64,000 nucleotides of DNA from an uncultured Phycisphaerales bacterium (GCA_963758525.1 CAVWVQ010000001.1:62502-126501); one strand, 5' to 3'. Positions 3,956 through 64,000 are shown, numbered from the stretch's first letter. Notes: generated by a model from the sequence alone, not told the origin. Program-made: numbers and translations.

Positions 3956-4026
3956 GTAGGGCGGGATTCATCCCGCCGCGCCTTCCGCAAGACGGCAGAC
4001 CATGGCGGGATAAATCCCGCCCTACA
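3956..4026. repeat. Paired-hairpin palindromic element, family A (copy 1 of 4)
   Basis: GTAGGGCGGGATTCATCCCGCC (3956..3977), a 27-nt spacer, then GGCGGGATAAATCCCGCCCTAC (4005..4026). Each half is a hairpin and the halves are mutual inverted repeats. Confidence 0.9.
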
Positions 4027-19142: not shown

Positions 19143-19210
19143 GTAGGGCGGGATTTATCCCGCCGGATGCCTCCGCCGGAAGCGAATCGGCGGGATAAAT
19201 CCCGCCCTAC
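19143..19210. repeat. Paired-hairpin palindromic element, family A (copy 2 of 4)
   Basis: GTAGGGCGGGATTTATCCCGCC (19143..19164), a spacer, then GGCGGGATAAATCCCGCCCTAC (19189..19210). Confidence 0.9.
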
Positions 19211-26129: not shown

Positions 26130-27413
26130 ATGAGCAATGAGCGCGGCTCCATTTTGTATCAGACCGGCCGGCACGAGGCGGCGGAACAGGAATTCCGCGC
26201 CGCGTTGGCGCAGGACTCATCCAATGCGCTGTCGCACGCGATGCTCGGGCTCTGCCTCGCCCGGCGCGAGGCCTACGACGAGGCGACCGCCGAAGCGCAA
26301 GAGGCGATCCGGCTGCGTCCGGACTGGCATTTCGGATATTCAACCCTGGCTCACGTTCTGCTCGATCGCGAGCGCCTCAAGCCAGCCGCCGAGGCGATCG
26401 TCAAGGCCATCGAGATCGATTCGTTCAATGCCGGCTATCACGGATTGCTGGCGACGATTCGCCTGCAGCAGCGGCTGTGGCTGGCGGCGCTGGCGGCCGC
26501 CGACGCGGGGTTGCAGATCGATCCGGAAAACCAGTTCTGCCTGAACGCGCGGGCGCAGGCCCTGGTGAAGCTGGGTCGCAGCGACGAAGCGAGCCTGACG
26601 ATTGACGGCGCATTGCGGAAGGATCCCGAAAACGCCGTGACGCATGCCAACCAGGGGTGGGCGCTGCTGCATGCCGGCAAACACCGCGAAGCGATCGTTC
26701 ACTTTCGCGAGGCGTTGCGGCTCAAGCCGGAAATGGAGTGGGCCAAGGCCGGGCTGGTCGAGTCTCTCAAGGCGCGCAATATCATTTACCGGCTGATGCT
26801 CAAGTATTTCCTTTTCATGTCGCGCCTGCGCGGAAGAGCGCAATGGGCGATCATCGTCGGCGGATACGTCGGCTATCAGATCCTGGTGGCGGTCAAAGAC
26901 GCGCATCCGGAACTGAGAGTGCTGCTTCTGCCGCTGATCATCGCCTACGCGGTCTTTGCGATCATGACCTGGATTGCCCGGCCGTTGTTTGATCTGATGC
27001 TGCGCCTCCACCCCTACGGACGCTATGCACTCTCGCGCGATCAGACGATGGGCGCCAATTTGGTCGGCGGAACAATCGCTGTCGCTCTGGCGATCGCGAC
27101 CGCGGGGTTGGCGCGGCACGACAGCAATCTGCTCACCTCGGCGGTGCTTTGCGGAATGTTGCTGCTGCCGATCTCCACCATTTACTCCAGGCCCTCCGGC
27201 TGGCCGAGGCAGGCGATGACGCTCTACTGCGGCGCCCTCGCGTTCGTCGGCGTCGCGATAGCCGTCGCCGGTTGGCGCCTCCATCGCGCGGGGCTCCCCG
27301 CCAGCGATTTTCTGTTCAACATGCGCCAGCAACTGATCACGCTGTTTCTGTTCGGCGTTTTCCTCAACGGGTGGGTCGCCAACGCGCTGACGGCCGTTCG
27401 CGTGAAGAAGTAG
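26130..27413 (+). CDS. TPR-repeat protein with C-terminal polytopic membrane domain
   Basis: About 215 aa of TPR helices (...GRHEAAEQEFRAALAQD..., ...HREAIVHFREALRLKPE...) are followed by 5-6 hydrophobic segments. It starts 8 nt after the TPR-AAA gene. Confidence 0.65.
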   Translation: MSNERGSILYQTGRHEAAEQEFRAALAQDSSNALSHAMLGLCLARREAYDEATAEAQEAIRLRPDWHFGYSTLAHVLLDRERLKPAAEAIVKAIEIDSFNAGYHGLLATIRLQQRLWLAALAAADAGLQIDPENQFCLNARAQALVKLGRSDEASLTIDGALRKDPENAVTHANQGWALLHAGKHREAIVHFREALRLKPEMEWAKAGLVESLKARNIIYRLMLKYFLFMSRLRGRAQWAIIVGGYVGYQILVAVKDAHPELRVLLLPLIIAYAVFAIMTWIARPLFDLMLRLHPYGRYALSRDQTMGANLVGGTIAVALAIATAGLARHDSNLLTSAVLCGMLLLPISTIYSRPSGWPRQAMTLYCGALAFVGVAIAVAGWRLHRAGLPASDFLFNMRQQLITLFLFGVFLNGWVANALTAVRVKK

Positions 27414-38374: not shown

Positions 38375-38764
38375 ATGGATTTTCTCAAAAGCATCGGCGG
38401 GAAAATCGTCACCGGGCTGGTGGCGCTGGCAGTGATCGCGGCAGGGGTCTCCTGGTTTGAGATGGACCCGGGCACGCGGCATGCCATCGCCTCTGACGCT
38501 GGCCGTATTCTTGCGTGGTCCGGAGTTGTCATCCTCCTGCCGTGGGTGACGTTCTTCCTCATCGGCGCCGTGGCGCGGCAGGAGAGCAACCTCGCGGGAG
38601 CCTTGCTGGTGACGGGATATACGATCGTCGAGGCGGTCGTGCTGGCGTGGTTGTTTGGGTGGTCGCTCCGCGGGGCGATGCCGTGGGTCTTCTTTTCGGC
38701 GGCAGTTTTGTTGGCCGCGGCGTATAATCTTTTCACGTGCGACTGGATCGCCGAGAAATTGTGA
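38375..38764 (+). CDS. Small 4-TM membrane protein (first gene of the kinase/zinc-ribbon/Snf7-like operon)
   Basis: 129 aa with four hydrophobic segments. Its stop lies 4 nt before the kinase ATG. I recognise no family. Confidence 0.55.
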   Translation: MDFLKSIGGKIVTGLVALAVIAAGVSWFEMDPGTRHAIASDAGRILAWSGVVILLPWVTFFLIGAVARQESNLAGALLVTGYTIVEAVVLAWLFGWSLRGAMPWVFFSAAVLLAAAYNLFTCDWIAEKL

Positions 38765-38768
38765 AGCC

Positions 38769-39824
38769 ATGATTACTCCAAATCAACGCGTCGGCGAATA
38801 CGTTCTGCAGGAAAGGATTAGCGCCGGCACTTTTGGCGAGGTTTGGAAGGCGCATCACCACGTCTGGAGCGACCAGATCGTGGCGATGAAAATCCCCACC
38901 GATCCGCAATACATCCGAAACCTCCAGCGCGAAGGCGTCACCATTCACGGGCTGGTTCATCCCAACATCGTGCGCACGTTGGCGTTCGATCCGTTTGCCG
39001 AGGTCGCGTATCTGGCGATGGAATACATTCCCGGCACCAGCCTTCGACCGGTGATTCAGAGCCGCAAGCTCAAACCGGACGACGCGGTAGCCATCATGCG
39101 GCAGGTGCTTGCGGGGCTCTCGTTTGCCCATGAGCGCGGGGTCGTGCATCGCGATATCAAGCCGGAGAATATCCTCGTCCACGAGCGCGTCGCCCAGGAA
39201 GGATATTCGTCGCCGGGGTTGATCAAGGTGACGGATTTCGGATTGGGCCAGACGTCGCAGACGATGGCGGCGGGGTCGATCGCGTACTCGGCGTCCCTGC
39301 AGACGCCGCAGGCGCAGGAAATCGCCGGCACGCTCGACTACATGGCGCCCGAGCAACGGAGCGTCCAGGAGAAAATTGACGGACGCACCGATCTCTACGC
39401 CTGCGGCGTGGTCCTTTACGAGATGCTCACCGGCGAACGACCAGCCGGCACAGAACTGCCCAGCGAGCTGAATCACGCCGTTTCGCGGCAACTCGACGAA
39501 GCGTTCCGTCGCTCCTACTCCCGGCTGGATAAGCGATTTGCTTCCGCGGCGGAGTTTGCCAAGGCGCTGGGCGGCCCGCCGCCCGTCCCGCAGACGGCGC
39601 CGCGGAGCGTGCCGTTGAATATGATGTTGCTGGAAAAGCGGGCGTGCCCGCAATGTCGTCAGTCGGTGGAAGCGGCGGACCAGTTCTGCATGCACTGCGG
39701 CGTGCAGCTGGTCGAAAACGTTCGCCGCTGTCCGCAGTGCGGCGCGTATCCCGATCTGACGGACCAGTATTGTATTTTTTGCGGACAGACGCTCAGCCGC
39801 ACTCCGATGCCGGCCGCGAGGTAA
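38769..39824 (+). CDS. Ser/Thr protein kinase (Hanks type) with C-terminal double zinc ribbon
   Basis: From ATG 38769: ...ISAGTFGEVWKA...VAMKI..., HRDIKPENIL, TDFGLG, GTLDYMAPEQ. The C-terminus reads CPQCRQ...CMHCG...CPQCGA...CIFCG. Confidence 0.85.
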   Translation: MITPNQRVGEYVLQERISAGTFGEVWKAHHHVWSDQIVAMKIPTDPQYIRNLQREGVTIHGLVHPNIVRTLAFDPFAEVAYLAMEYIPGTSLRPVIQSRKLKPDDAVAIMRQVLAGLSFAHERGVVHRDIKPENILVHERVAQEGYSSPGLIKVTDFGLGQTSQTMAAGSIAYSASLQTPQAQEIAGTLDYMAPEQRSVQEKIDGRTDLYACGVVLYEMLTGERPAGTELPSELNHAVSRQLDEAFRRSYSRLDKRFASAAEFAKALGGPPPVPQTAPRSVPLNMMLLEKRACPQCRQSVEAADQFCMHCGVQLVENVRRCPQCGAYPDLTDQYCIFCGQTLSRTPMPAAR

Positions 39825-46408: not shown

Positions 46409-46477
46409 GTAGGGCGGGATTGATCCCGCCGCTTTCTCGGCCGGGCCAACAAATCGGCGGGATGAATCCCGCCCTAC
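46409..46477. repeat. Paired-hairpin palindromic element, family A (copy 3 of 4)
   Basis: GTAGGGCGGGATTGATCCCGCC (46409..46430), a spacer, then GGCGGGATGAATCCCGCCCTAC (46456..46477). Confidence 0.9.
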
Positions 46478-52103: not shown

Positions 52104-52947
52104 CACCGCAGGGTCACCTGTCCAGAAATGATTCGATGGACGGTCCGTCCGTCGCTGAGCAGCAGCCTTCCGGTGCTGTCGAGCCCCTGGCACTTGCCGG
52201 ACAGGACCGCGTCGTCCGGTGCATTGGAAATGCTGATCCGCCTTCCGACCAGCGCATGATGTGAATCATACTCTTTCAGGACAGCCGCGAATGGATGATC
52301 GCTTCCTCGCTTCAGCACCGCGCGGAGATGCGAAGCGATCAGCAGCAGCGCATCGTTCGGATTGATCGGCGCGCCGCGCACTTGCGCGAGAGTCGTCATG
52401 CGCTGTCGCAAGGGCAGGGGGCGCGAGAAACATCGACGTTCAGATTCAGACCGATGCCAACGAGATCGGCTTTGAGTATGCGTTCGCAGAGCAGCCCGCC
52501 GATTTTGCGATCTCCAAAGAGGAGATCGTTGGGCCACTTCAGGAGGATCTCCTGACTCCCGCTCAGCTCCGCGGCCGCGTTGCGAACCGCCAGCCCCGCG
52601 ATCAGCGGCAGTTGGTGCGGTGCGATCTGCTCATCGATCGGCAGCGCGATGGTCACGGTCAGGCATCCAGCCGCAGACCACCAGACGTTATCGCCGCGCC
52701 CGCGGCCCGCGGTCTGCCGGCCAGCGAGCACCACCGCCGGCGCAAAAAGATCACCGCGACGGCGCAGGGCGGCCGCGTGATCGTTGGTGCTTCGCAGGCG
52801 GGTAAACCAGTGCAGTCGAAAAGGTTTCAGCCCGCGTCGTAGTCGCGCAAGATCGAATCCTGCGGTGTGTCTCAGTGCCGTATCAACGGCGGCGCTGGAC
52901 GGGGCGTTCGTCAGCGTTGGCTTTCGCAGATCAACCCTCCAGGACAA
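52103..52947 (-). CDS. birA: Biotin--[acetyl-CoA-carboxylase] ligase, frame-broken at the C5/G5 run 52416..52420
   Basis: ...VVLAGRQTAGRGRGDNVWWS...LKWPNDLLFGDRKIGGLLCE...GIGLNLNV.... It continues in another frame as ...RPLPLRQRMTTLAQV...LSGKCQGLDSTGRLLL.... Confidence 0.8.
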
Positions 52948-55900
52948 TCAGCAGATCCTTGGCGCTGACAACCGATCCCGCCTTCACCAGCACATCGCCG
53001 ATCTTCGCGTCCCGCGGACTGTACACCGCCGTCTCCATCTTCATCGCCTCGATCGACAGCAGCCGTTCTCCGGTTTTCACGTCCTGCCCTTTCTTCACCA
53101 TCACGCTCGAGACTTTGCCCGGCATCGGCGCGGCAACGTGATTGAGATCATCCGGATCGGCCTTGGGCTGCCGGTGCAGTTTCCCTTCCAAAGAACGGTC
53201 CGGGACGTTGACTTCGCGCGGCTGGCCGTTGAGCTCGAAAAAGACCGTTCGCAGGCCGTCCGCACGCGCGTCGCCGGTCGTGAGGTACTTGATGATCAGC
53301 GTCTTGCCCGGCTCGATCTCGACGGAAATCTCCTCGCCGCTCTGCAGGCCGTAGAAGAATGCCGGAGTCGGAATCACGCTGGTGTTGTCGTACCTCTGCA
53401 GATGCTTCGCGTAATCGAGATAGACCTGCGGGTAGAGCACGTAGGACACGGCATCGATGTCGCGTACGTCCTGCTTGAGCTTTTGCTGCAATTCCGTTTT
53501 CACCGCCGTAAAATCCGCCTTGGGAAGCTTGGCGCCGGGGCGTCCCTTTATCGGTTGGACATCCGCATTTTTGAGGATGATGCGCTGAAGCACCTTCGGC
53601 CAGCCGCCCTCGGGTTGCCCGAGCATTCCCTGCATCATCTCCACGACGCTGCGCGGAAAATTGAGCTTCTTTTCGGGCGCCAGCACGTCCATCGCGGACA
53701 GTCCGTTGGTAACCATGAATAGTGCGAGATCGCCGACCACTTTGCTCGAGGGCGTCACCTTCACGATGTCGCCCAGCAGTTCGTTCACCTGCGCGTACGC
53801 CCGGGCAATTTCCTCCCAGCGCCCTTCAAGACCCAGGCTCCGCGCCTGCTGGCGAAGATTCGTATATTGACCGCCCGGCATCTCGTGCTGATACACCTCG
53901 GCCGTTCCGGCTTTCATCTCTTCTTCAAACGGATAGTAATATTCGCGGACGCCTTCCCAATAGCGGCTCAGGCGATTGAGCGCCTCGAGATCGAGCGCGG
54001 AATCGCGCGCCGTATGCTGCAGCGCCGCGACCAGCGAATTCAGATTCGGCTGACTGGTCATCCCGCTCATGGCCGCCAGCGCCCCGTCAACGATGTCGAC
54101 GCCGGCATCGCTGGCGCGCAACACGCTCGCGGCGTTGACGCCGCTCGTATCGTGCGTGTGAAAATGAATCGGCACGCCCACCTCATCGCGGAGGGCTTTG
54201 ACCAGCGCGTAGGCCGCGTATGGCTTGCACAGCCCCGCCATGTCCTTGATGCCGAGAATATGCGTTCCCATGTTGACCAATTCCTTGGCCATCGAAACGT
54301 AATATTTGAGGCTGTATTTGGTGCGCCGCGGATCGAGGATATCGCCCGTGTAGCAGATGGCGGCCTCGCAGAGGGAGTCAGTTTTCTCCCGCACCGCTTC
54401 GATCGCAACCTTCATGTTTTCGGTCCAGTTCAGCGAATCGAAGATGCGGAAGACGTCGATGCCGTGTGCTCCGGCTGCCTTGACGAATTCGCGGACGACG
54501 TTGTCGGGATAATTGGTGTAGCCGACCGCGTTGCTCGCCCGCAGAAGCATCTGAAAAAGAATGTTCGGCACGCGCGTCCGAAGTTGGTCGAGCCGATCCC
54601 ACGGATCCTCCTGCAGAAAGCGCATGGCTGTGTCAAATGTCGCCCCGCCCCACATTTCCAGGCTGAACAGGCCCGGCGTCAGATGCGCGACGGCGTCGGC
54701 GATCGCCAGCATGTCGTGCGTCCGGACGCGCGTTGCCAGCAGCGACTGGTGCGCGTCGCGCATCGTCGTGTCGGTGAACAGCAATCGCTTCTGCTTGCGC
54801 GTCCACTCGGCAAATTTCTCGGGGCCAAGCTCGCGAAGCCTGTCGCGCGTCCCCGCGGGCGGACGCGTTGCCTGCGGATAGGCGGGAATAATCAGTTCCG
54901 GCATGCGGCGATGCGGGTCGAGCTTCTCCTTGACCTCTGGCCGGCCATTGATGATGACGTCGCCCAGATAGCTGAGGATCTTCGTCGCCCGATCGCGACG
55001 CGGCCGGAAGTGAAACAGCTCCGGCGTGTTGTCGATAAACGTCGTCAGGGCGTCGCCACTGACAAACGTCTTGTGCGAAAGAAGATTTTCGAGAAACGGG
55101 ATATTGGTTTTGACGCCGCGCACGCGAAATTCGCGCAGCGCCCTGTCCATGCGCAGGATGCTTTCGCCAAACGTGCTGCCCCAGGTGGTGACTTTCACCA
55201 GCAGCGAGTCGAAGTAGGGTGTGATCACGGCGCCGCCAAAACCGTTGCCTCCATCGAGCCGAACGGCAAAACCGCCAGGAGAGCGGTAGGTGGTCAATCT
55301 TCCATAGTCGGGGATGAAATGATTCTCCGGATCTTCGGTGGTGATCCGGCACTGGATCGCGCAGCCGCGCGTTTCGATCTTCTCCTGTGGCGGAATGCTT
55401 AGCGGAGCCTCGTGCAACTTGAATCCCTGCGCGACGAGGATCTGGCTCTTGACGATGTCGATGCCGGTCACAACTTCCGTCACCGTGTGTTCGACCTGCA
55501 CGCGCGGATTCACTTCAATGAAGAAAAACTCGTGCCGATCCAGATCGAGCAGGAACTCCACGGTCCCGGCATTGCGATAATCCGCACCTTTGCAGAGCCG
55601 CACCGCTGATTCGCAGATCGCTTTGCGAAGTTCGAGAGGAAGGTTGATGCTGGGGGCAATCTCGACCACCTTCTGATGGCGGCGTTGGACGGAGCAGTCG
55701 CGCTCCCACAGATGAACGAGGTTGCCATGCTCGTCGCCGAGAATCTGCACTTCGATATGCTTGGCCCGCGCGACATATCGCTCGATGAAAACTTCTCCGC
55801 GGCCGAAAGCGGCCCCCGCTTCCCGCTGCGCCTCTTCGAGCCTGGGCATCAGTTCCTCGGCGGTGCGGACCACGCGCATCCCGCGCCCGCCGCCGCCGAA

Positions 55901-56386
55901 GCTGGCTTTGATGATGAGGGGATAGCCGATTTGCTTGGCGGCGGCCTTTACGTCAGCCGGATCGCTCAGCCCATGCTCCGTGCCGGGAAGCGTCGGGACG
56001 TTGGTTTTCTTCGCGAGCCGTTTGGCGGCCGTTTTGTCCCCGAAGGTTTCCAAAAGCTGCGGCGTCGGTCCGACGAAGGTGATGCCGTTATCCTTGCAAG
56101 CCTGTGCCAGCCCCGCATTCTCGGCAAGGAATCCGTAACCGGGATGGATCGCGTCCACGCCGTGCTGCGTGGCGATTGCCATCAGCGCCGCAATATCCAA
56201 ATATCCTTTGACCGGGCTGCCCCCTTCCGGCGGGCCGATCAGGTAGGACTCATCCGCTTTGAAGCGATGCAGCGAGAAGCGATCTTCATAGCTGTAGACA
56301 GCGACGGTATCGAGCCCGAGCTCGGTAGCCGCGCGAAAAATACGAATCGCGATTTCACTTCGATTGGCGACGAGGAGCTTGCGCAT
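52931..56386 (-). CDS. pyc: Pyruvate carboxylase (single-chain: biotin carboxylase + carboxyltransferase + BCCP)
   Basis: From ATG 56386: MRKLLVANRSEIAIRIFRAA.... ATP-grasp, ...FTDTTMRDAHQSLLATR... and a C-terminal ...LSIEAMKMET... biotinyl-Lys motif. The 80 upstream codons of the track ORF translate a family-B repeat and are not coding. Confidence 0.9.
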   Translation of the reverse strand: MRKLLVANRSEIAIRIFRAATELGLDTVAVYSYEDRFSLHRFKADESYLIGPPEGGSPVKGYLDIAALMAIATQHGVDAIHPGYGFLAENAGLAQACKDNGITFVGPTPQLLETFGDKTAAKRLAKKTNVPTLPGTEHGLSDPADVKAAAKQIGYPLIIKASFGGGGRGMRVVRTAEELMPRLEEAQREAGAAFGRGEVFIERYVARAKHIEVQILGDEHGNLVHLWERDCSVQRRHQKVVEIAPSINLPLELRKAICESAVRLCKGADYRNAGTVEFLLDLDRHEFFFIEVNPRVQVEHTVTEVVTGIDIVKSQILVAQGFKLHEAPLSIPPQEKIETRGCAIQCRITTEDPENHFIPDYGRLTTYRSPGGFAVRLDGGNGFGGAVITPYFDSLLVKVTTWGSTFGESILRMDRALREFRVRGVKTNIPFLENLLSHKTFVSGDALTTFIDNTPELFHFRPRRDRATKILSYLGDVIINGRPEVKEKLDPHRRMPELIIPAYPQATRPPAGTRDRLRELGPEKFAEWTRKQKRLLFTDTTMRDAHQSLLATRVRTHDMLAIADAVAHLTPGLFSLEMWGGATFDTAMRFLQEDPWDRLDQLRTRVPNILFQMLLRASNAVGYTNYPDNVVREFVKAAGAHGIDVFRIFDSLNWTENMKVAIEAVREKTDSLCEAAICYTGDILDPRRTKYSLKYYVSMAKELVNMGTHILGIKDMAGLCKPYAAYALVKALRDEVGVPIHFHTHDTSGVNAASVLRASDAGVDIVDGALAAMSGMTSQPNLNSLVAALQHTARDSALDLEALNRLSRYWEGVREYYYPFEEEMKAGTAEVYQHEMPGGQYTNLRQQARSLGLEGRWEEIARAYAQVNELLGDIVKVTPSSKVVGDLALFMVTNGLSAMDVLAPEKKLNFPRSVVEMMQGMLGQPEGGWPKVLQRIILKNADVQPIKGRPGAKLPKADFTAVKTELQQKLKQDVRDIDAVSYVLYPQVYLDYAKHLQRYDNTSVIPTPAFFYGLQSGEEISVEIEPGKTLIIKYLTTGDARADGLRTVFFELNGQPREVNVPDRSLEGKLHRQPKADPDDLNHVAAPMPGKVSSVMVKKGQDVKTGERLLSIEAMKMETAVYSPRDAKIGDVLVKAGSVVSAKDLLIVLEG

Positions 56387-56561
56387 CAGATCCCTGGAAG
56401 CAGAAGGAAGGCGGTTAAACGCCGGCGCATCACCGCGCCGGCGAGGTCGGCGGTATTGTGAGAAACTGCCGGTGATTTGCAAGGGAAAGCGACGGAGAGC
56501 GAACGGGTCAGGCGTGCGCGAATCCCCGGGGCGAGGTGCTTCACGGCGATATCCGCTCTTC

Positions 56562-56602
56562 CCCCTCCCCTGGTACTCCGGGGGAGGGTTGGGGTGGGGG
56601 TT
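56562..56602. repeat. Family B element (single copy)
   Basis: CCCCTCCCCTGGTACTCCGGGGGAGGGTTGGGGTGGGGGTT has the same hairpin plus G-rich tail as 18976..19090. Confidence 0.85.
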
Positions 56603-56851
56603 CGTCCGTCCGGCGGGCCACGGCACACTTACGATTCTCCTCCCACCTCAGTCCTCCCCGCGGGTACGAGGGGGGGAGGCAAGACAACTCTGCCCGGAAA
56701 ACGCACGCCCGACGGGTCCTCGAGAAAATGTCCGATGGGAGATCGCGCGTATGGCTTGCAACCCACAAGGCCGACTACATTACGGACAGCACGATCTTGT
56801 TTACGGGGAAAATCGCCTTGTCCCTGTTTCGCAACGAGAGGTTGATCATCG

Positions 56852-57681
56852 ATGCCCGAACTTCCAGAACATCACTCCAGAACGGCTCACGCCGGGCATC
56901 AAGACCGGCCAAAGCCCTGGAAGACACTGCGGGCTTCCGTTCCATACCGCTGGCTGCGGCCGATTCTGTTCGTCGACTGGCTCACGCAATGGGCCGTATA
57001 CGCGATGAGCCATGTGTCGCTGCTGGAACTGCTGGAATATTGCGGCAGCTTTTCCATCCTCATCGCGGTGATCTTCTACTTCAAGGACGGCCCGGAACGA
57101 ACGAAACTGAAGCACTACCAGGCCTGGCAGGTCATCAACACCGCGCAGGGAAAGGGAGGCAGCGGAGGGCGCACCGACGCGCTGCACGAGTTGAACGAAG
57201 ATCACGTGCCGCTGGTGGGCGTGGATGTCTCCGATGCATTTCTGCAGAAGGTCGATCTCAAAGATGCCGATCTTCGCCGGTCCGACTTCCACGGAGCCGA
57301 CCTCAAAGGCGCCCAGTTGTCGGGCGCGAGTTTTGAGCAGGGGGAATTGGAGTCAGCGAACCTGCGGGAAGCCGACTTGTCGAAGGTAAACCTGACCAGC
57401 GCCCGGATAGCCGACGCCGATCTCACCAATGCGAATCTCACCGGCGTCCTTCTGCACGACGCGACATTTGATCGAGCGGATTTGCGCGGCGTGAACCTCG
57501 CGGGGGCACGGCAATGGGACGCCATCAGGAGTCTGACGCTCGCCAACATCCACGGGGTTCGCAACGCTCCGGAGGGCTTCGTCGACTGGCGCTGCACCGC
57601 GGAGCGGTCGACACCGAATCAGATGACGCGTGGGAGCAGCAGATCAGCTCCCAAAAGGTGACGCCGGCGACGAAGCCTTAA
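56852..57681 (+). CDS. Membrane-anchored pentapeptide-repeat protein, frame-broken near 57585-57595
   Basis: N-terminal TM (...LELLEYCGSFSILIAVIFYF...), then ...VDLKDADLRRSDFHGADLKGAQLSGASFEQGELESANLREADLSKVNLTSARIADADLTNANL.... The alternative frame restores ...WALHRGAVDTESDDAWEQQISSQKV... with a stop at 57681. Confidence 0.8.
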
Positions 57682-57956
57682 ATGACCTTGCGCTCACGCG
57701 CTGTCAATCTCCCACGTTCTGCGCGAATTCATGCGGATGAAAAAATCCGGTCTGACGCGGCGTGCGCGAATTTCCGGGTGCAACCTGTTCGCGGCGATAC
57801 CCCGCTTTTGCCCCCTCCCCTGGTAGTGGACGCCGCAATGATTGAAGGTAAAGTCTTTGGCTCCTGCGTCTGAGATCAGAGGGATCGCGGAATGCCGCGG
57901 AGCGACGGGATTGCTGTTCTCAAGCGGGATTGCTTTTCTCAAAAAGGAGGCCGTTC

Positions 57957-58895
57957 GTGGCGATCAACGAGAACCTGACGGAGTTCCAAGGGAAACGAGT
58001 CGAAGAGTTCGATCCCGAGCCGTTGCTTGGCGACGCTCGCACGGTGGCATACCGCATTCGTCTTGATTGGGACGAGGGCCAGGGCGGGACACGGTGGGTC
58101 GACAAGTTTGCCCAACTGCTTGAGAAGCCCGATTCCCGGCAGATTGAGACGCTGATCATCGGAGCGTGGGAAAACACCGCCGGCGGGACCGACTCGTCGT
58201 CCATCGTCGAAGCCCTGGTCGCCGCGCGGGACGTTCTTCCCAAGCTCAAGCATCTGTTCTTCGGAGACATCATCATGGAGGAGAGCGAAATTTCCTGGAT
58301 CAACCAGACCGACATGTCTCCGCTCTTTGAGGCTTACCAGGGCCTGGAGCATCTCACGATCCGCGGCGGAATGAATCTTTCGGTCGGTCGCATTCGCCAT
58401 CAGAAACTGCGCGAGCTGATCATTCAGACCGGGGGCTTGCCCCCGCAGGCGATTCATGAGATCACCGCCTCGGAACTTCCTGCGCTGGAACATCTGGAGC
58501 TTTGGCTCGGAGAGCCCAATTATGGGGGAGACGCCACCGCGGAGGACCTGGCGGCGCTGCTTCGCGGCGATCGTTTTCCAAAACTCAAATATCTGGGCAT
58601 CAAAGACAGCACCGTTGCTGACGAGATCGCGGCTGTTCTTGCCAACTCTCCGATTCTTGGAAAGTTGGATGTGCTCGATCTGTCTCTCGGCACGCTCGGC
58701 GACGAAGGGGCCGGTGCTCTGCTGGCCTCACCGCACATTCGCGGTCTGAAAAAGTTGGATGTGCACCACCACTTCATCTCGGATGATTTGGTGACAGAGT
58801 TGCAATCCCTGGGAATCGAAATCGATGCCGGCGACAAGCAGGAACTCCAGGAATGGGGCGGTGAACAGCATCGATTCATCGCGGTGAGCGAGTGA
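57957..58895 (+). CDS. Leucine-rich-repeat-type cytoplasmic protein, STM4015-like
   Basis: GTG 57957 lies 6 nt after AAGGAGG. ...IETLIIGAWEN..., ...LKHLFFGDI..., ...LEHLTIRGG..., ...LEHLELWLG..., ...LKYLGIKDS... and ...LDVLDLSLGTLGDEGAGALL... repeats. First gene of a 5-gene overlapping operon. Confidence 0.6.
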   Translation: MAINENLTEFQGKRVEEFDPEPLLGDARTVAYRIRLDWDEGQGGTRWVDKFAQLLEKPDSRQIETLIIGAWENTAGGTDSSSIVEALVAARDVLPKLKHLFFGDIIMEESEISWINQTDMSPLFEAYQGLEHLTIRGGMNLSVGRIRHQKLRELIIQTGGLPPQAIHEITASELPALEHLELWLGEPNYGGDATAEDLAALLRGDRFPKLKYLGIKDSTVADEIAAVLANSPILGKLDVLDLSLGTLGDEGAGALLASPHIRGLKKLDVHHHFISDDLVTELQSLGIEIDAGDKQELQEWGGEQHRFIAVSE

Positions 58896-60096
58896 ACGCG
58901 GGCGCAGCGGCGCACCTGATTCCCCGAGACGGGCGGCCGCCGCGTTTCGTTGTCATCGGTATTCCCGGCTCGAGGCGGGTTGAGCTGTTTGATGCCGCCT
59001 TGCAACGGCAAGGCATTGCTGCATCGCTCTTGGTCCCATGGCTGCAGTGGATTGAGGGCTCGCATGCACTTGCCGGCACCTTGCGGGCCGGGGACATCGT
59101 TCGCATCGAGTCCCCGGGTCAGGATTTTGCCGTGGAACGCGCCATTCTCCGCGAAGGTATTGAGTCCGCCGAAGACGACAGATGCGCAATGCTCGGCGCT
59201 GCGGAACTGGCGCGGCTGGATTTCGACAGAGGGCGAATTCTTTGCCCGCGCCAGTGGTATCTCGGATTCGCGCGGTTGCTCGGCCGCCTGAAGAACGAGC
59301 TTTCCGAAATCAATGATCTGGTTCTGATGAACGACTGCGATGACATCGCCCTGATGTTTGATAAGCCGTCGTGTCACCTGGCCATGTTGGAAGCTGGGAT
59401 TTCCGTCCCCGCGTCATTGGGTCAGCCCAATTGCTATGACGAATTGGTCGCGGAGATGGTGCGCAGAAAAATCCATCGCGTCTTCGTAAAGCTCGCCCAC
59501 GGATCAAGCGGATCGGGAGTGGTTGCCTATCAGACGGATGGACGGCGGCACCTGGCCTGGACGACGGTTGAAACAGCGCGCAGTGCTGACGGCATCGGAT
59601 TGTACAATACCCGCAAGCTGCGCCGCCTCAGCGGCCACCTCGAAATTGCCCGGCTCATTGACGAACTCTGCCGGCACCGGGTGCACGTCGAGACCTGGAT
59701 TCCCAAGGCCGGGATCGAGGGAATGGTGTTCGATCTGCGCGTGGTGATGATCGCGGCCGCGCCGCGCAGGTGGTTGCTCGACTCAGCAATACGCCGGTCA
59801 CCAATCTGCATCTGCTGAATCAGCGGCGTGCTGGGTCGCTCGTGCGCGCCCGCATGGGGGAATCGGCCTGGCACGGCCTGATGAACACTTGCACCGATGC
59901 CATGCGACTTTTCCCTGGCAGCCTGCACGCGGGTATCGATCTGGCGGTCACACCCGATCTGAGGCACCATGCGGTTCTGGAGATCAACGCTTTCGGCGAT
60001 CTGATTCCCGGAGTTCTGCATGAGGGCATGGAAACCCACGACACGGAAATTCAGGCGATGATGACAAGTCACCTGACGCAAGGGGCCATTTCGTGA
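58892..60096 (+). CDS. ATP-grasp (RimK-like) protein, STM4014-like, frame-broken near 59750-59770
   Basis: ORFs 58892..59818 and 59770..60096 join as ...FDLRVVMIA then ...AAQVVARLSNTPVTNLHLLNQR...AVLEINAFGDL.... ...VFVKLAHGSSGSGVVAY... fits an ATP-grasp B-loop region. Confidence 0.6.
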
Positions 60097-60896
60097 ACGT
60101 TGCATCGATGATCGGGAGCCACGATATCCTCCTGGTGACGCTCGATACGCTGCGCTATGACGCGGCGGTCGAAGCGATGGAGCGTGGTCTCACGCCAGCG
60201 CTGCGCAGCGTTTGTCCCGGCGGTCGCTGGGAACTTCGGCACTCGCCAGGATCGTTTACCTACTCCGCACATCACGCGTTCTTTGCCGGCTTTCTCCCCA
60301 CTCCGGCCGCGCCGGGAACGCATCCGCGTCTTTTCGCCGCGCGATTCGTCGGAAGTGAATCCACCGGCGCCCAGACTGCCGTGTTTGATGCCCCGGATAT
60401 CGTCGCCGGCGTCGCACACGCCGGGTATCACACGGTCTGCATCGGAGGCGTCGGTTTCTTCAACAAGCAGACGCCGCTCGGATCGGTCTTGCCGTCGCTA
60501 TTTGCCGAGAGCCACTGGAGCCCGGAAATGGGCGTGACGTCGCGCGATTCGACGCAACGGCAATTTGAGTTGGCAAGCGCGATCATCGCAGAGTTGCCCC
60601 CTGACCGGCGCCTCATGCTGTTCCTGAACGTCTCCGCGATTCACCAGCCAAACTGCATCTACGTTCCAGGCGCCGCGGTCGACGACAAGCAAACGATGAT
60701 CGCGGCACTGGCGTATGCCGATTGCTGGCTGGGGCGTCTGTTCGAGATGATGCGTCGCCGAGCGCCGCTGCTGGGGGTCGTCTGTTCCGATCATGGAACT
60801 GCCTACGGCGAGGACGGGTTCTGCGGCCATCGGATCGCCTCCCCGGTGGTCTGGAACGTTCCGTATGCGGAATTTGTCCTGGAGAAACTGCGATGA
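60093..60896 (+). CDS. Alkaline-phosphatase/sulfatase-fold hydrolase, STM4013-like
   Basis: ...HDILLVTLDTLRYDA... (metal-site Asp motif), ...FTYSAHHAFFAG... and ...VCSDHGTAYGEDG.... GTGA overlap upstream and ATGA overlap downstream. Confidence 0.55.
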   Translation: MNVASMIGSHDILLVTLDTLRYDAAVEAMERGLTPALRSVCPGGRWELRHSPGSFTYSAHHAFFAGFLPTPAAPGTHPRLFAARFVGSESTGAQTAVFDAPDIVAGVAHAGYHTVCIGGVGFFNKQTPLGSVLPSLFAESHWSPEMGVTSRDSTQRQFELASAIIAELPPDRRLMLFLNVSAIHQPNCIYVPGAAVDDKQTMIAALAYADCWLGRLFEMMRRRAPLLGVVCSDHGTAYGEDGFCGHRIASPVVWNVPYAEFVLEKLR

Positions 60897-62230
60897 GCCT
60901 CGCGCAGTTTCCGCTCACCGTCGCCTCGCTGAAATCGGCAACGCCGTACGCGGCCTACTCGTATTCCTATCCGCACAAGACGGCCTACCGCCCGATCTCA
61001 CCCGCGCTGAGCCTTCACGATGCCTGGAAGAACGAGGCTGTCGATTCCCTGTTCCTTTACGTTCACCTCCCGTTCTGCGAGATGCGCTGCGGATTTTGCA
61101 ATCTCTTCACCACTGCAAACCCATCGGAAGACGTGGTTGACGTTTATCTGCAGGCGCTGCAGAGGCATTGCCGGCGGATCAGCAACGCGATCGCCTCGCC
61201 GCGATTCGCGCGATTCGCGATCGGCGGCGGAACGCCCACCTTTCTATTGGCACGGCAACTTCAACGACTCTTCGATCTGCTCGCCCGCGATCCCGCCGTC
61301 GATCCGCGGCAAACGCCAACTTCCGTCGAAACGTCGCCGCGCACCGCGGATGACGATCGTCTTGGCGTGCTGAAGGATCGCGGCGTCAGCCGGATCAGTA
61401 TCGGGGTGCAGAGCATGATCGACAGCGAAGTAAACGCGGCCGGCCGCGCGCAAAAGGAGCAGTGGGTCACCGCGGCGATCGACCGCATCCGAAAACACGG
61501 ATTTGCCACGCTGAACGTTGATCTCATGTACGGTTTGCCAGGACAGAGCGCTGCGTCTTTCGCGCAATCGCTGAAGCGTGTTCTGAAGTTTCGGCCCGAG
61601 GAATTGTACCTCTATCCGTTATACGTGCGGCCGCTGACCGGACTGGATCGATGGGGCGAGCAGCCGGCAGATCAGCTCCGGTTGGACTGCTATCGGGCAG
61701 GACGCGACCTGTTGCTCGCGGGCGGTTACGAGCAACTGTCGATGCGCATGTTCCGGGCGAGTTGGGCGCCCGATCAGGGCGGACCAGTGTATTGTTGCCA
61801 GGACGACGGAATGGTCGGGCTCGGCTGCGGAGCGAGGTCTTACACAACCGGGCTTCACTACTCGAGCGAATATGCCGTCGGCGCTGCGGGCGTGAAAGCG
61901 ATCCTGCGCGATTACCTCACCAAGACCGATGCTGATTTCGATCGCATCTCATACGGCTGCTTTCTCGACGGCACGGAACAGCAGCGAAGGTACATCATCA
62001 AGTCGCTTCTTCGATCCGAGGGCTTGAGCGAAGCTGCCTACGTGAGACGATTTGGTAGGGAATTGCTGATCGACGTGCCGGAGATAACCGACTTGGTTCA
62101 GGAACGACTGGTGGAACGGAATGGCTCTCTTCGATTAACAGAAAGCGGGATGGAGCGATCAGATGCGATTGGCCCATATCTCTATTCCGGCGCGGTGAAG
62201 CAGATGATGGATGATTACGAGCTTCATTGA
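60893..62230 (+). CDS. HemN-like radical SAM protein, STM4012-like
   Basis: ...SLFLYVHLPFCEMRCGFCNLFT... (CxxxCxxC), ...FAIGGGTPTFL..., ...ISIGVQS... and ...NVDLMYGLPGQS..., the coproporphyrinogen-III-oxidase-like family pattern. Confidence 0.75.
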   Translation: MSLAQFPLTVASLKSATPYAAYSYSYPHKTAYRPISPALSLHDAWKNEAVDSLFLYVHLPFCEMRCGFCNLFTTANPSEDVVDVYLQALQRHCRRISNAIASPRFARFAIGGGTPTFLLARQLQRLFDLLARDPAVDPRQTPTSVETSPRTADDDRLGVLKDRGVSRISIGVQSMIDSEVNAAGRAQKEQWVTAAIDRIRKHGFATLNVDLMYGLPGQSAASFAQSLKRVLKFRPEELYLYPLYVRPLTGLDRWGEQPADQLRLDCYRAGRDLLLAGGYEQLSMRMFRASWAPDQGGPVYCCQDDGMVGLGCGARSYTTGLHYSSEYAVGAAGVKAILRDYLTKTDADFDRISYGCFLDGTEQQRRYIIKSLLRSEGLSEAAYVRRFGRELLIDVPEITDLVQERLVERNGSLRLTESGMERSDAIGPYLYSGAVKQMMDDYELH

Positions 62231-63147
62231 TGACGTCATACACTATTTTGTATCGCGGCCCGCTTTCGAGTTGCAATTACGGTTGCGGCTATTGTCCCTT
62301 TGCAAAGCGAAGTGAAACCCATGCCCAGTTGCAGGGCGATCGGGATGCGCTGGAGCGATTTGTCGAGTGGATTTCACGACAGAATATTTGCGACACCGAC
62401 ATTTCCGTATTGTTTACCCCCTGGGGCGAGGCGCTGATCCGCCGCTGGTATCAGGATGCGATTGTGGATTTGAGCAATCGAACGTACGTCCGCAAAGTTG
62501 CGATTCAGACCAATCTCTCTGGTTCGCTTGATTGGCTCCACCGTTGCGACCTGCAGAAGCTGGGGCTCTGGTGCACGTATCATCCGCGAGAAACGCCGCG
62601 ACAACGATTTCTGGAGCAGTGCCGAAAGCTCGACGAAGCCGGCGTTCGATACAGCGTCGGCGTCGTCGGAGTCAGGGAACACCTTGACGAGATTGAGGCC
62701 ATGCGAAATCTTCTGCACCCGGGCGTCTACCTGTGGGTCAACGCTTACAAGCGCGTGGACGACTACTACACCGGCGATGAACCATCCCGGCTCGCCGCTA
62801 TCGATCCTCTCTTCCCCGTGAATAACACGCGTCACGCGAGCTTCGGCGAGCGATGCAACGCGGGCGAAACGGTTTTTTCCGTGGACGGCGACGGGAATAT
62901 CCGCCGCTGCCATTTCATCAATGAAGTGATCGGCAACATCTACAACCCGGATTGGGCCCGGTGCCTGCAGCCACGAACCTGCACGAATCAAACCTGCGGC
63001 TGCCACATCGGCTACGTCCACATGCCGCGCCTTGGGCTGCAAACTGTCTTTGATGATGGGCTGCTGGAGCGAATTCCACGGTCTCGCGCAGCCGCTTTCG
63101 CTCTTCCCGTACTGCCGCGGCCCAGTGCCGACACTGCGAACGAATGA
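62230..63147 (+). CDS. Radical SAM protein, STM4011-like
   Basis: MTSYTILYRGPLSSCNYGCGYCPFAKR... has a CxxxCxxC cluster at the extreme N-terminus. The C-terminal part is Cys-rich (...CTNQTCGCHIGY...). ATG 62230 overlaps the preceding stop (TGATG). Confidence 0.7.
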   Translation: MTSYTILYRGPLSSCNYGCGYCPFAKRSETHAQLQGDRDALERFVEWISRQNICDTDISVLFTPWGEALIRRWYQDAIVDLSNRTYVRKVAIQTNLSGSLDWLHRCDLQKLGLWCTYHPRETPRQRFLEQCRKLDEAGVRYSVGVVGVREHLDEIEAMRNLLHPGVYLWVNAYKRVDDYYTGDEPSRLAAIDPLFPVNNTRHASFGERCNAGETVFSVDGDGNIRRCHFINEVIGNIYNPDWARCLQPRTCTNQTCGCHIGYVHMPRLGLQTVFDDGLLERIPRSRAAAFALPVLPRPSADTANE

Positions 63148-63235
63148 ATGACGTAACGTGGGATACCTACCGCCGTTTTGTTGCCTAGCCTCGAGTGCTT
63201 CGCTCCATCAGAATTTGCGGGGCGATTGATCCGCG

Positions 63236-63293
63236 GTAGGGCGGGATTCATCCCGCCGCAACTTGAGAGGCGGCGGGATGAATCCCGCCCTAC
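63236..63293. repeat. Paired-hairpin palindromic element, family A (copy 4 of 4)
   Basis: GTAGGGCGGGATTCATCCCGCC (63236..63257), a 14-nt spacer, then GGCGGGATGAATCCCGCCCTAC (63272..63293). Confidence 0.9.
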
Positions 63294-63344
63294 ACCCGCA
63301 GTTTCAAGCGAATGATCCACTGGTTCTTCCGTCTGCGTCGGTGC

Positions 63345-64000
63345 CTACGTTTCGCTCAGCGGTCGATATTGATCCGGGTCATCAAAACCGGCGATCCACG
63401 CCGCCGCCTGATGGCACGTTGCCGTGGTCGGAGGAACTCTCAGAACGTAGCGTCGGGCGGTGGAGGGGCAGATGACGCTGAGGCAAACAAGATCCTCGTC
63501 CCCTTCCATCGGAACTTTCACCAGCCTTCTCGGGCCGCCCGCATCGCGATCTTCGTCGAGCGTCTGGGCGTTCGCGTCAGCCAGGAACTTTTGATACCCC
63601 ATGCGCTCAAGCATCACCCTGCGTTTTTCAGCATTGGGTTCCGCAAGAATCTCCTGCGAAGTAATGGTTTCGGACAGGAACGCGATTCGCGCATCGACGG
63701 GGACCCCGCGCCAGCGAATCTGAACGCCGTAGAGCGAGCAGGGCAGCGACGTGACTCCCGTGCCCGCAACGTCAATCCAGGATGAAACCCGCAATCCTTC
63801 CGGGAGGCTTCTCAGATTGGTGCAGTCGCGCAAATCCAATTGGGCAATGCGACACAGCCACGAAGGGAGTTCGCGAAGCTGGGCGCACCCGCGAGCGGTC
63901 AGCCGCCCGACCGAAACTGACGCGTGCGCCGGCCATCGCTCAAGCCCCGTGCAGCCGCTCACATCAAGGAAGTAAGTGTCCAGCCCCTCCGGCAGCTCGG
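63345..64000 (-). CDS. LRR protein with conserved C-terminal domain of unknown function; N-terminus outside the window
   Basis: The frame stays open to base 64000 (...LPEGLDTYFLDVSGCTGLERWP...). LRR units are LRELPSWL..LDLRDCTNLRSLPEGL. The C-terminal part ...RRVMLERMGYQKFL...YVLRVPPTTATCHQAAAWIAGFD...YRPLSET looks like a recurring DUF seen at LRR protein ends. Confidence 0.55.
   Translation of the reverse strand, partial: ELPEGLDTYFLDVSGCTGLERWPAHASVSVGRLTARGCAQLRELPSWLCRIAQLDLRDCTNLRSLPEGLRVSSWIDVAGTGVTSLPCSLYGVQIRWRGVPVDARIAFLSETITSQEILAEPNAEKRRVMLERMGYQKFLADANAQTLDEDRDAGGPRRLVKVPMEGDEDLVCLSVICPSTARRYVLRVPPTTATCHQAAAWIAGFDDPDQYRPLSET

Follow-up and report, generated by a model that had tools for sequence, protein, structure and literature searches.

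The genes STM4015 to STM4011 of Salmonella enterica LT2 and their counterparts in Escherichia coli LF82 form a gene cluster that is already catalogued and named. We analysed an additional member of this cassette, one with a broken ligase gene, which lies at positions 57957 to 63147 of a 64,000-nucleotide (nt) stretch of DNA from an uncultured Phycisphaerales bacterium (GCA_963758525.1 CAVWVQ010000001.1:62502-126501). The whole stretch is called the window below and positions are counted from its first letter. The five genes encode a leucine-rich repeat (LRR) protein (STM4015), a putative ATP-grasp ligase (STM4014), a hydrolase with an alkaline phosphatase superfamily core (STM4013) and two radical S-adenosylmethionine (SAM) enzymes (STM4012 and STM4011). 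The window copy has the five families, the order, the strand and the overlapping junctions of the enterobacterial cassette. It differs from it in that the amino-acid identity to the enterobacterial proteins is low (33-34% for STM4011), that the Cof-type HAD-IIB gene, the sixth gene of the enterobacterial operon, is not found in the visible part of the window, that the ligase gene is frameshifted and that a convergent gene for an LRR-DUF6745 protein follows the cassette.

The ATP-grasp ligases RimK, MptN, LysX and CofF have carboxylate substrates that all end in a glutamyl-type residue, and in the LysW system later enzymes work on a group that is tethered to the carrier. The RimK/S6 and LysX/ArgX/LysW systems are like the cassette in having an ATP-grasp ligase of the same broad group and a protein partner with an acidic C-terminus ending in Glu. 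However, the candidate carrier of the cassette is an LRR protein of about 300 amino acids (aa) with a conserved tail of seven residues, and not a 54-aa zinc-ribbon protein or a ribosomal protein. The downstream enzymes also differ from those of LysW, since they are two radical SAM proteins and a phosphoesterase with no LysK-like release peptidase, and for the cassette the ligation is a proposal. No LysZ/Y/J/K-type kinase, reductase, aminotransferase or release peptidase was found among the conserved neighbours.

A second likeness is to mycofactocin (MftA/MftC), pyrroloquinoline quinone (PqqA/PqqE) and other ribosomally synthesised and post-translationally modified peptides (RiPPs), where a SPASM/twitch radical SAM enzyme is encoded beside a product with a C-terminal Tyr/Glu motif, and where a multi-copy substrate gene accompanies single-copy enzymes. 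In contrast to these, the "precursor" of the cassette would be a large folded LRR protein, a PqqD-like recognition domain or peptidase was not found, and ATP-grasp and alkaline phosphatase-fold enzymes are added. Finally, STM4012 shares with HemN (1olt) and class C methyltransferases such as NocN (9p2u) the radical SAM core, a GGGTP-type second-SAM motif and the HemN_C domain, whereas it stays under the cut-off of every characterised HemN-like family.

Identity of the cassette

Each of the five window proteins exceeded the curated cut-off of one NCBIfam model, and the genes adjoin on the plus strand in the order STM4015, STM4014, STM4013, STM4012 and STM4011. STM4015 reached 341 bits with NF038076 (cut-off 275), STM4014 250 bits with NF038074 for its N-terminal half alone (cut-off 175), STM4013/SEN3800 392 bits with NF038075 (cut-off 250), STM4012 576 bits with NF006067 (cut-off 380) and STM4011 399 bits with NF038073 (cut-off 200). 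We are nearly certain that the window carries the conserved STM4015-4014-4013-4012-4011 cassette in a planctomycete-type version. A preliminary description of this DNA had stated the identity with the Salmonella set and had named a mismatch with the family models as the outcome that speaks against it; all five models agreed. The best database matches of the window proteins were from Planctomycetota, notably Tepidisphaeraceae and Phycisphaerae.

Four of the open reading frames (ORFs) were found on the plus strand as described before (57957..58895, 60093..60896, 60893..62230 and 62230..63147), and the fifth is treated below. The motifs quoted earlier were present as well, and both CX3CX2C clusters are intact (CEMRCGFC and CNYGCGYC). 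The junction overlaps GTGA at 58892, GTGA at 60093, ATGA at 60893 and TGATG at 62228 could all be read in the sequence, with the limit that the STM4014/STM4013 overlap holds only when the GTG at 60093 is the start. Stoichiometric co-translation, as suggested before, may follow from these overlaps. A Shine-Dalgarno-like AGGAGG (57944..57949, plus strand) was read directly 7 nt before the GTG of STM4015 at 57957. No riboswitch or other RNA motif was found in 56500-64000, the sigma-70 promoter scan gave 0 sites and the terminator scan gave 9 sites where 6.2 were expected, no excess over chance. The GC content is even over the region and the window has no compositional island.

The set had been described as having no assigned chemistry, and full-text literature searches agreed with this, yielding incidental mentions only. 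Within the library searched, the gene names, the family names, DUF6745, combinations of carrier protein, ATP-grasp and radical SAM, and LF82 returned no functional study. The STM gene and family names appeared merely as table entries in a sigma-54 chromatin immunoprecipitation study, a positive-selection scan and an RNA-seq list.

The C-terminal tail of STM4015

STM4015 (57957..58895, plus strand) encodes a protein of 312 aa that matches the Pfam model LRR_At5g56370 and is the proposed substrate or carrier. Its last seven codons (58872..58892, plus strand) read R-F-I-A-V-S-E, and the codon of the terminal Glu overlaps the GTG start of STM4014. To count this tail, the STM4015 homologues in the loci described below were extended to their stop codons (n=89). 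The terminal Glu was present in 87 of the 89 proteins, Arg at position -7 in 81 and Tyr or Phe at position -6 in 85, which gives a consensus of R-Y-x-x-V-x-Glu-COOH preceded by an acidic linker. The linker has 15-31 residues, 33% of them Asp or Glu compared with 15% elsewhere in the protein. A terminal Thr-Glu is seen in three genera: the Salmonella protein ends in ...NAMYTE, that of Bacteroides in ...YPMITE and that of Paenibacillus in ...YPSLTE.

In a separate, exhaustive search, 1.84 billion cluster representatives yielded 739 STM4015 relatives at E ≤ 1e-30, of which the best 150 were inspected. The terminal Glu and the same tail were found in 144 of them; in the other six the alignment ends before the C-terminus is reached. 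The STM4015 domain extends to the last residue in nearly all of these 150, even where other domains precede it. These N-terminal fusions carry a WGR domain (P0442, P0397, P0418, P0475 and P0374), a Lon substrate-binding domain (P0484) or extra LRRs (P0453); a further fusion is L082:6513-7586, where L and a number denote one of our loci.

In 65 of 78 loci, STM4015 ends upstream of STM4014 at a distance of less than 200 nt. The two genes do not overlap in many loci, and a stop codon that overlaps the following start is therefore not the explanation of the terminal Glu. STM4015 is also the sole component that is multiplied: 2-6 copies were found in 17 of 87 loci, and STM4014, STM4013 and STM4011 were always single. 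The second copies that were inspected end in Glu, most of them with R-Y at -7/-6, with the exception of two degenerate copies. Because of its invariant C-terminal tail and its being the only multi-copy component, STM4015 looks more like a substrate than a passive scaffold, and the comparisons suggest that the cassette acts on the C-terminal Glu tail.

The preliminary description had found no convincing precursor peptide for the cassette. This was right for the only candidate it named, an 11-codon ORF at 57838..57873, which exists as the end of a 63-codon ORF; what it overlooked was the LRR protein itself, whose tail could act as a RiPP-type core peptide. A precursor encoded upstream was rejected as far as tested, as the 63-codon ORF is not conserved and the closest relative, locus L086, has an ORF resembling a transposase or integrase remnant at this place. 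No conserved ORF of at least 50 aa precedes STM4015 in the loci, very short ORFs not having been searched systematically. Neither a peptidase nor a PqqD-like domain was found among the conserved neighbours of the cassette.

The ligase gene STM4014 is split by one missing base

The preliminary description had given the ATP-grasp gene as a single ORF at 58892..60096. This interval has 1205 nt, which is no multiple of 3, and contains two ORFs in different frames; the peptide SNTPVTNLHLLNQR, quoted for the ORF, sits in the second one, so that the frameshift had been missed. The N-terminal frame (58892..59818, plus strand) has 308 codons, the last 18 or so being out-of-frame read-through, and matches NF038074 at positions 1-250 of 349 with 250 bits. 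The C-terminal part (59764..60096, plus strand) continues in the -1/+2 frame, where the listed ORF starts at the GTG at 59770 (59770..60096), and matches NF038074 at positions 254-348 with 106 bits.

The break was located at 59763..59764 on the plus strand by DNA alignment, three-frame translation and protein alignment. When compared with two intact relatives in the DNA alignment, a single base is absent after 59763, a G of CCGGCG, and the window reads CC-GCGCAG instead of CCGGCGCAC. Insertion of this one base restored an STM4014 of 401 aa that aligned without gaps to 21 homologues and reached 376 bits with NF038074. The repaired protein retains every invariant residue, including K200 and E364/N366. 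All 119 listed STM4014 homologues have 374-474 aa, and the truncation to 308 aa occurs in none of them.

A programmed frameshift was considered and rejected, since there is no slippery heptamer, the listed relatives are intact and the DNA alignment has a plain one-base gap. The truncated 308-aa product is also recorded in the source assembly, and the break therefore belongs to the deposited assembly. From the intact relatives and the absence of a slippery site it follows that the break is either a very recent inactivating mutation or a base-calling or assembly error, between which the sequence alone cannot decide. Other overlapping ORF pairs in the window were scanned for split families; most pairs had no Pfam match and were hence uninformative on the quality of the assembly. 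Five intact frames were thus not found in this copy, STM4014 being split by the one-base deletion. Since the ligase gene is broken, the window copy should not stand as a reference for a working cassette until the base call has been verified.

The similarity of STM4014 to described ligases is remote. Among 22 members of the family, 18 matched the rimK_fam model (best E 3e-9), 15 MptN and 3 LysX, and CofF was matched as well, all below the family cut-offs. A profile search of the PDB with STM4014 found RimK at E ~0.1 only. These weak matches are consistent with a place of STM4014 in the broad ATP-grasp group of RimK, LysX and MptN.

The hydrolase and the two radical SAM enzymes

STM4013 (60093..60896, plus strand) encodes a hydrolase of 267 aa with an alternative start at ATG 60108. 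The gene call of the source assembly has 262 aa, consistent with the ATG at 60108 and an 11-nt gap to STM4014, whereas the closest relative uses the overlapping start. A sequence search of the PDB with STM4013 gave no match. Its AlphaFold2 model (mean predicted local distance difference test, pLDDT, 84) had weak fold matches to EptC, Xanthomonas NPP, BcsG, GALNS and phosphopentomutase, with E from 5e-3 and a template modelling score of about 0.55. Invariant in STM4013 are D18, which follows strand 1, T56, located where helix 57-64 begins, N179/H184, D233-H234, which come behind strand 226-232, and H246-R247. They would fit a two-metal phosphoesterase with a Thr nucleophile.

STM4012 (60893..62230, plus strand) encodes a HemN-like radical SAM protein of 445 aa. 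In the PDB its sequence matched HemN (1olt) at 1e-32 and NocN (9p2u) at 1.6e-15. STM4011 (62230..63147, plus strand) encodes a radical SAM protein of 305 aa with a Cys-rich, SPASM/twitch-like C-terminal part. Its sequence found only noise in the PDB. The closest PDB folds to its AlphaFold2 model (pLDDT 89) were anSME as the top match, SkfB, viperin, EpeE and BtrN, which is the SPASM/twitch neighbourhood. Besides the CX3CX2C cluster, seven Cys are invariant in STM4011, including C209-x17-C227, with a Gly 4 residues before the second Cys, and C251-x4-C256-x-C258.

The top match to anSME raises the question whether STM4011 is a maturase of an active-site residue of STM4013, and relatives of STM4013 with weak Pfam Sulfatase matches are on record. 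The sulfatase-maturase idea was rejected because STM4013 has no formylglycine motif C/S-x-P-x-R; its nucleophile position is held by the invariant Thr56. The related idea that the cassette handles haem or another tetrapyrrole through STM4012 draws on the matches of this protein to the HemN, HemW and ChuW models at about 1e-42 to 1e-38. All of these are far under the equivalog cut-offs (TIGR00538, HemN, 144 versus 325; TIGR00539, HemW, 146 versus 205; TIGR04107, ChuW, 131 versus 400), and no haem-related genes are conserved nearby. We regard an active-site maturase or a haem-related function as very improbable.

Distribution of the cassette

To obtain the locus set, one genome per species was scanned, which gave at least 584 stretches that encode an STM4014 relative, and the best 80 loci were kept. 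All five genes were present in 47 of these 80 STM4014-anchored loci, 40 of the 47 having them in the canonical order on one strand; among the loci with enough flanking DNA, 37 of 50 had all five. The genes therefore travel together, and the independent occurrence that the preliminary description had named as evidence against a common system was not seen. The order is conserved over many phyla, and RefSeq annotation has it in Salmonella Senftenberg, E. coli LF82, Deinococcus taeanensis (on a megaplasmid) and Paenibacillus. Some loci are rearranged, with the STM4015-STM4014 pair apart from the STM4013-4012-4011 triple. The closest relative, L086, has the same five genes at 70-80% amino-acid identity with an intact ligase of 403 aa, followed by a convergent set of a DUF6745 gene, a 98-aa gene, a HAD-IA gene and three small genes.

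Two gene fusions were found, a 677-aa STM4014::STM4013 ORF in a metagenome-assembled genome of the Phycisphaeraceae (L057:9989-12022, plus strand) and a 521-aa STM4011::HAD-IIB in Bacteroides. Bacteroides finegoldii seemed to offer a minimal three-gene system of STM4015, STM4014 and STM4011-HAD. This was rejected, as a gap of 365 nt contains remnants of the N-terminus of STM4013 (77 aa) and the C-terminus of STM4012 (58 aa; L082:8587-8953). The locus is therefore a deletion derivative and a second decayed copy of the cassette.

HAD phosphatases were encoded less than 4 kb from the cassette in 12 of 87 loci, in Pseudomonadota, Bacteroidota, Deinococcota and Planctomycetota. Loci in which a HAD phosphatase was noted with the cassette include L081 (9837-10571), L085 (10839-11537), L082 (8965-10530), L083 (11279-12106), L086 (10476-11174), L005, L021, L024, L027 and L040. 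In Salmonella and E. coli the Cof-type HAD-IIB comes sixth in the operon; it is the partner in the Bacteroides fusion, and in Deinococcus it is encoded in the neighbourhood. Several Planctomycetota have a YjjG-like HAD-IA as an insertion between STM4014 and STM4013.

In E. coli, the cassette and the Cof HAD gene were found in 158 of 5426 complete genomes. They are accessory, always chromosomal and single-copy (for example NC_011993.1, 4128073-4133609), and the strains that bear them include the adherent-invasive LF82 and NRG 857C. Such a patchy distribution, together with the megaplasmids and the decayed copies in the window and in Bacteroides, would suit a conflict or anti-phage system. STM4015 would then sense an invader and the radical SAM and phosphoesterase enzymes would make a toxic or chain-terminating nucleotide analogue in the way of viperin. 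LRR and WGR domains are typical sensor modules, the fold of STM4011 is viperin-like with a weak pVip match, and the HAD-IA in some Planctomycetota loci looks like a nucleotidase. However, PADLOC 2.0 returned weak generic radical SAM matches only (PDC-M51A 2.8e-8, pVip 2e-3), and in E. coli and Salmonella the cassette occupies one fixed chromosomal site between the yih cluster and typA, as in LF82, and no defence island. The only two matches in phage collections are Salmonella records (one of 5.9 kb without annotation and one of 156 kb titled as a Salmonella strain) that look like chromosomal fragments, and the even composition of the window also argues against this explanation. An anti-phage role appears improbable.

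A tentative mechanism for the cassette

With considerable doubt, we tentatively favour the view that STM4015 is the substrate or carrier, that the ligase acts on its C-terminal Glu and that the radical SAM enzymes and the phosphoesterase or phosphoesterases tailor the product. STM4015 would present its tail of an acidic linker followed by R-Y-x-x-V-x-Glu-COOH. STM4014, as a RimK/LysX/MptN-like enzyme, may activate the terminal glutamyl carboxylate as an acyl-phosphate and join it to an amine. The amine could be glutamate, which RimK adds to the ribosomal protein S6, or some other amino compound, by analogy with LysX and LysW. STM4012 and STM4011 would then remodel the tethered group or the Tyr/Val/Glu tail, and the putative Thr-nucleophile phosphoesterase STM4013, in many genomes with a HAD phosphatase, might remove or transfer phosphate. 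The outcome would be either a protein with a modified C-terminus or a metabolite assembled on a carrier protein. In favour of this sequence of steps, anSME, SkfB and EpeE, among the nearest folds of STM4011, act on proteins or peptides, and the STM4014::STM4013 and STM4011::HAD-IIB fusions tie the steps together.

Several points weigh against it. The likeness of STM4014 to RimK and LysX is weak in the family models (best E 3e-9, below the cut-offs) and in the PDB profile search (E ~0.1). The Y-V-A-V-S-E tail, with its alternating pattern, might instead serve for docking or form a structural beta-strand. An amidase or peptidase for the release of a product is not conserved in the cassette, it is hard to see what phosphoesterases would do in a pathway on peptides alone, and in the fold search with the STM4011 model viperin nearly equals the peptide-modifying enzymes. 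All steps of the mechanism are inferred from comparison.

The preliminary description had taken the LRR protein as a scaffold and had called a modified small metabolite, or else a protein side-chain modification, plausible. On the small-molecule view the enzymes would act on a free metabolite and make a modified nucleoside, a cofactor or a phosphorylated metabolite, with the LRR protein as a scaffold or regulator. The HAD-IIB and HAD-IA phosphatases that recur with the cassette and the NPP/EptC-like Thr-nucleophile core predicted for STM4013 would fit such a pathway; STM4011 is also similar to viperin, whose substrate is a nucleotide, and to BtrN, whose substrate is a sugar, and MptN and CofF, relatives of STM4014, act on cofactors. 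However, a pathway on a free metabolite leaves the invariant C-terminal Glu tail, the multiplication of STM4015 alone and the C-terminal placement of its domain unexplained, and no transporter or regulator was conserved with the cassette among the neighbours of the loci. We consider it rather unlikely.

Genes and elements around the cassette

Downstream of the cassette, the 3' part of an LRR and DUF6745 gene (63345..64000, minus strand; PF20530 9e-25) runs convergently and with an open frame to the end of the window, where it is cut. In 20 of 87 loci, which span several phyla and include the Deinococcus megaplasmid, the cassette is followed by such a gene. The DUF6745 proteins seen as examples have a separate C-terminal tail, Y-R-P-x-x-E-T. 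A gene for a protein of 98 aa lies directly upstream of the DUF6745 gene in 17 of 87 loci, usually in the same operon (L086:10137-10433, L027:16117-16431 and L083:10882-11178, minus strand). The protein has no Pfam or NCBIfam match and contains the motifs GE(V/A)TGHSHR and LPxGxYxVxQQREY; a counterpart in the Phycisphaerales genome would fall beyond base 64000.

The 197-nt spacer between the convergent genes contains a perfect palindrome with arms of 24 nt (63236..63293; fold -94 kcal/mol, z = -5.7), which is probably a bidirectional terminator or stabiliser. It belongs to a family of elements resembling repetitive extragenic palindromes, which was observed at four intergenic sites of the window (3960-4021, 19147-19206, 46413-46473 and 63240-63289; 16 matches against 0.17 expected). 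Each site is an inverted pair of GGCGGGAT(T/A)(C/T/G/A)ATCCCGCC.

Upstream, a pentapeptide-repeat gene (56852-57661, plus strand) ends 296 nt before the cassette and is not conserved with it in relatives. A long ORF at 52931-56626 (minus strand) appears pyruvate carboxylase-like from reading its translation only, with biotin carboxylase and carboxyltransferase parts and an AMKME biotinyl motif; its listed GTG start adds an N-terminal extension that is probably spurious. Further away, the window encodes a Ser/Thr protein kinase with a C-terminal double zinc ribbon (38655-39824, plus strand) and a tetratricopeptide repeat protein (26130-27413, plus strand).

Significance of the cassette

We think it possible, if doubtful, that the cassette carries out protein-templated radical SAM chemistry of a new kind. 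The C-terminus of an LRR protein would be extended by a ligase and rebuilt by two radical SAM enzymes and phosphoesterases, which would yield a C-terminal protein modification or a carrier-bound metabolite. The cassette, which includes two radical SAM enzymes, is present in hundreds of species of many phyla, including Salmonella enterica and the adherent-invasive E. coli LF82. The invariant Glu tail and the multi-copy pattern of STM4015 make its function directly testable in a tractable host.

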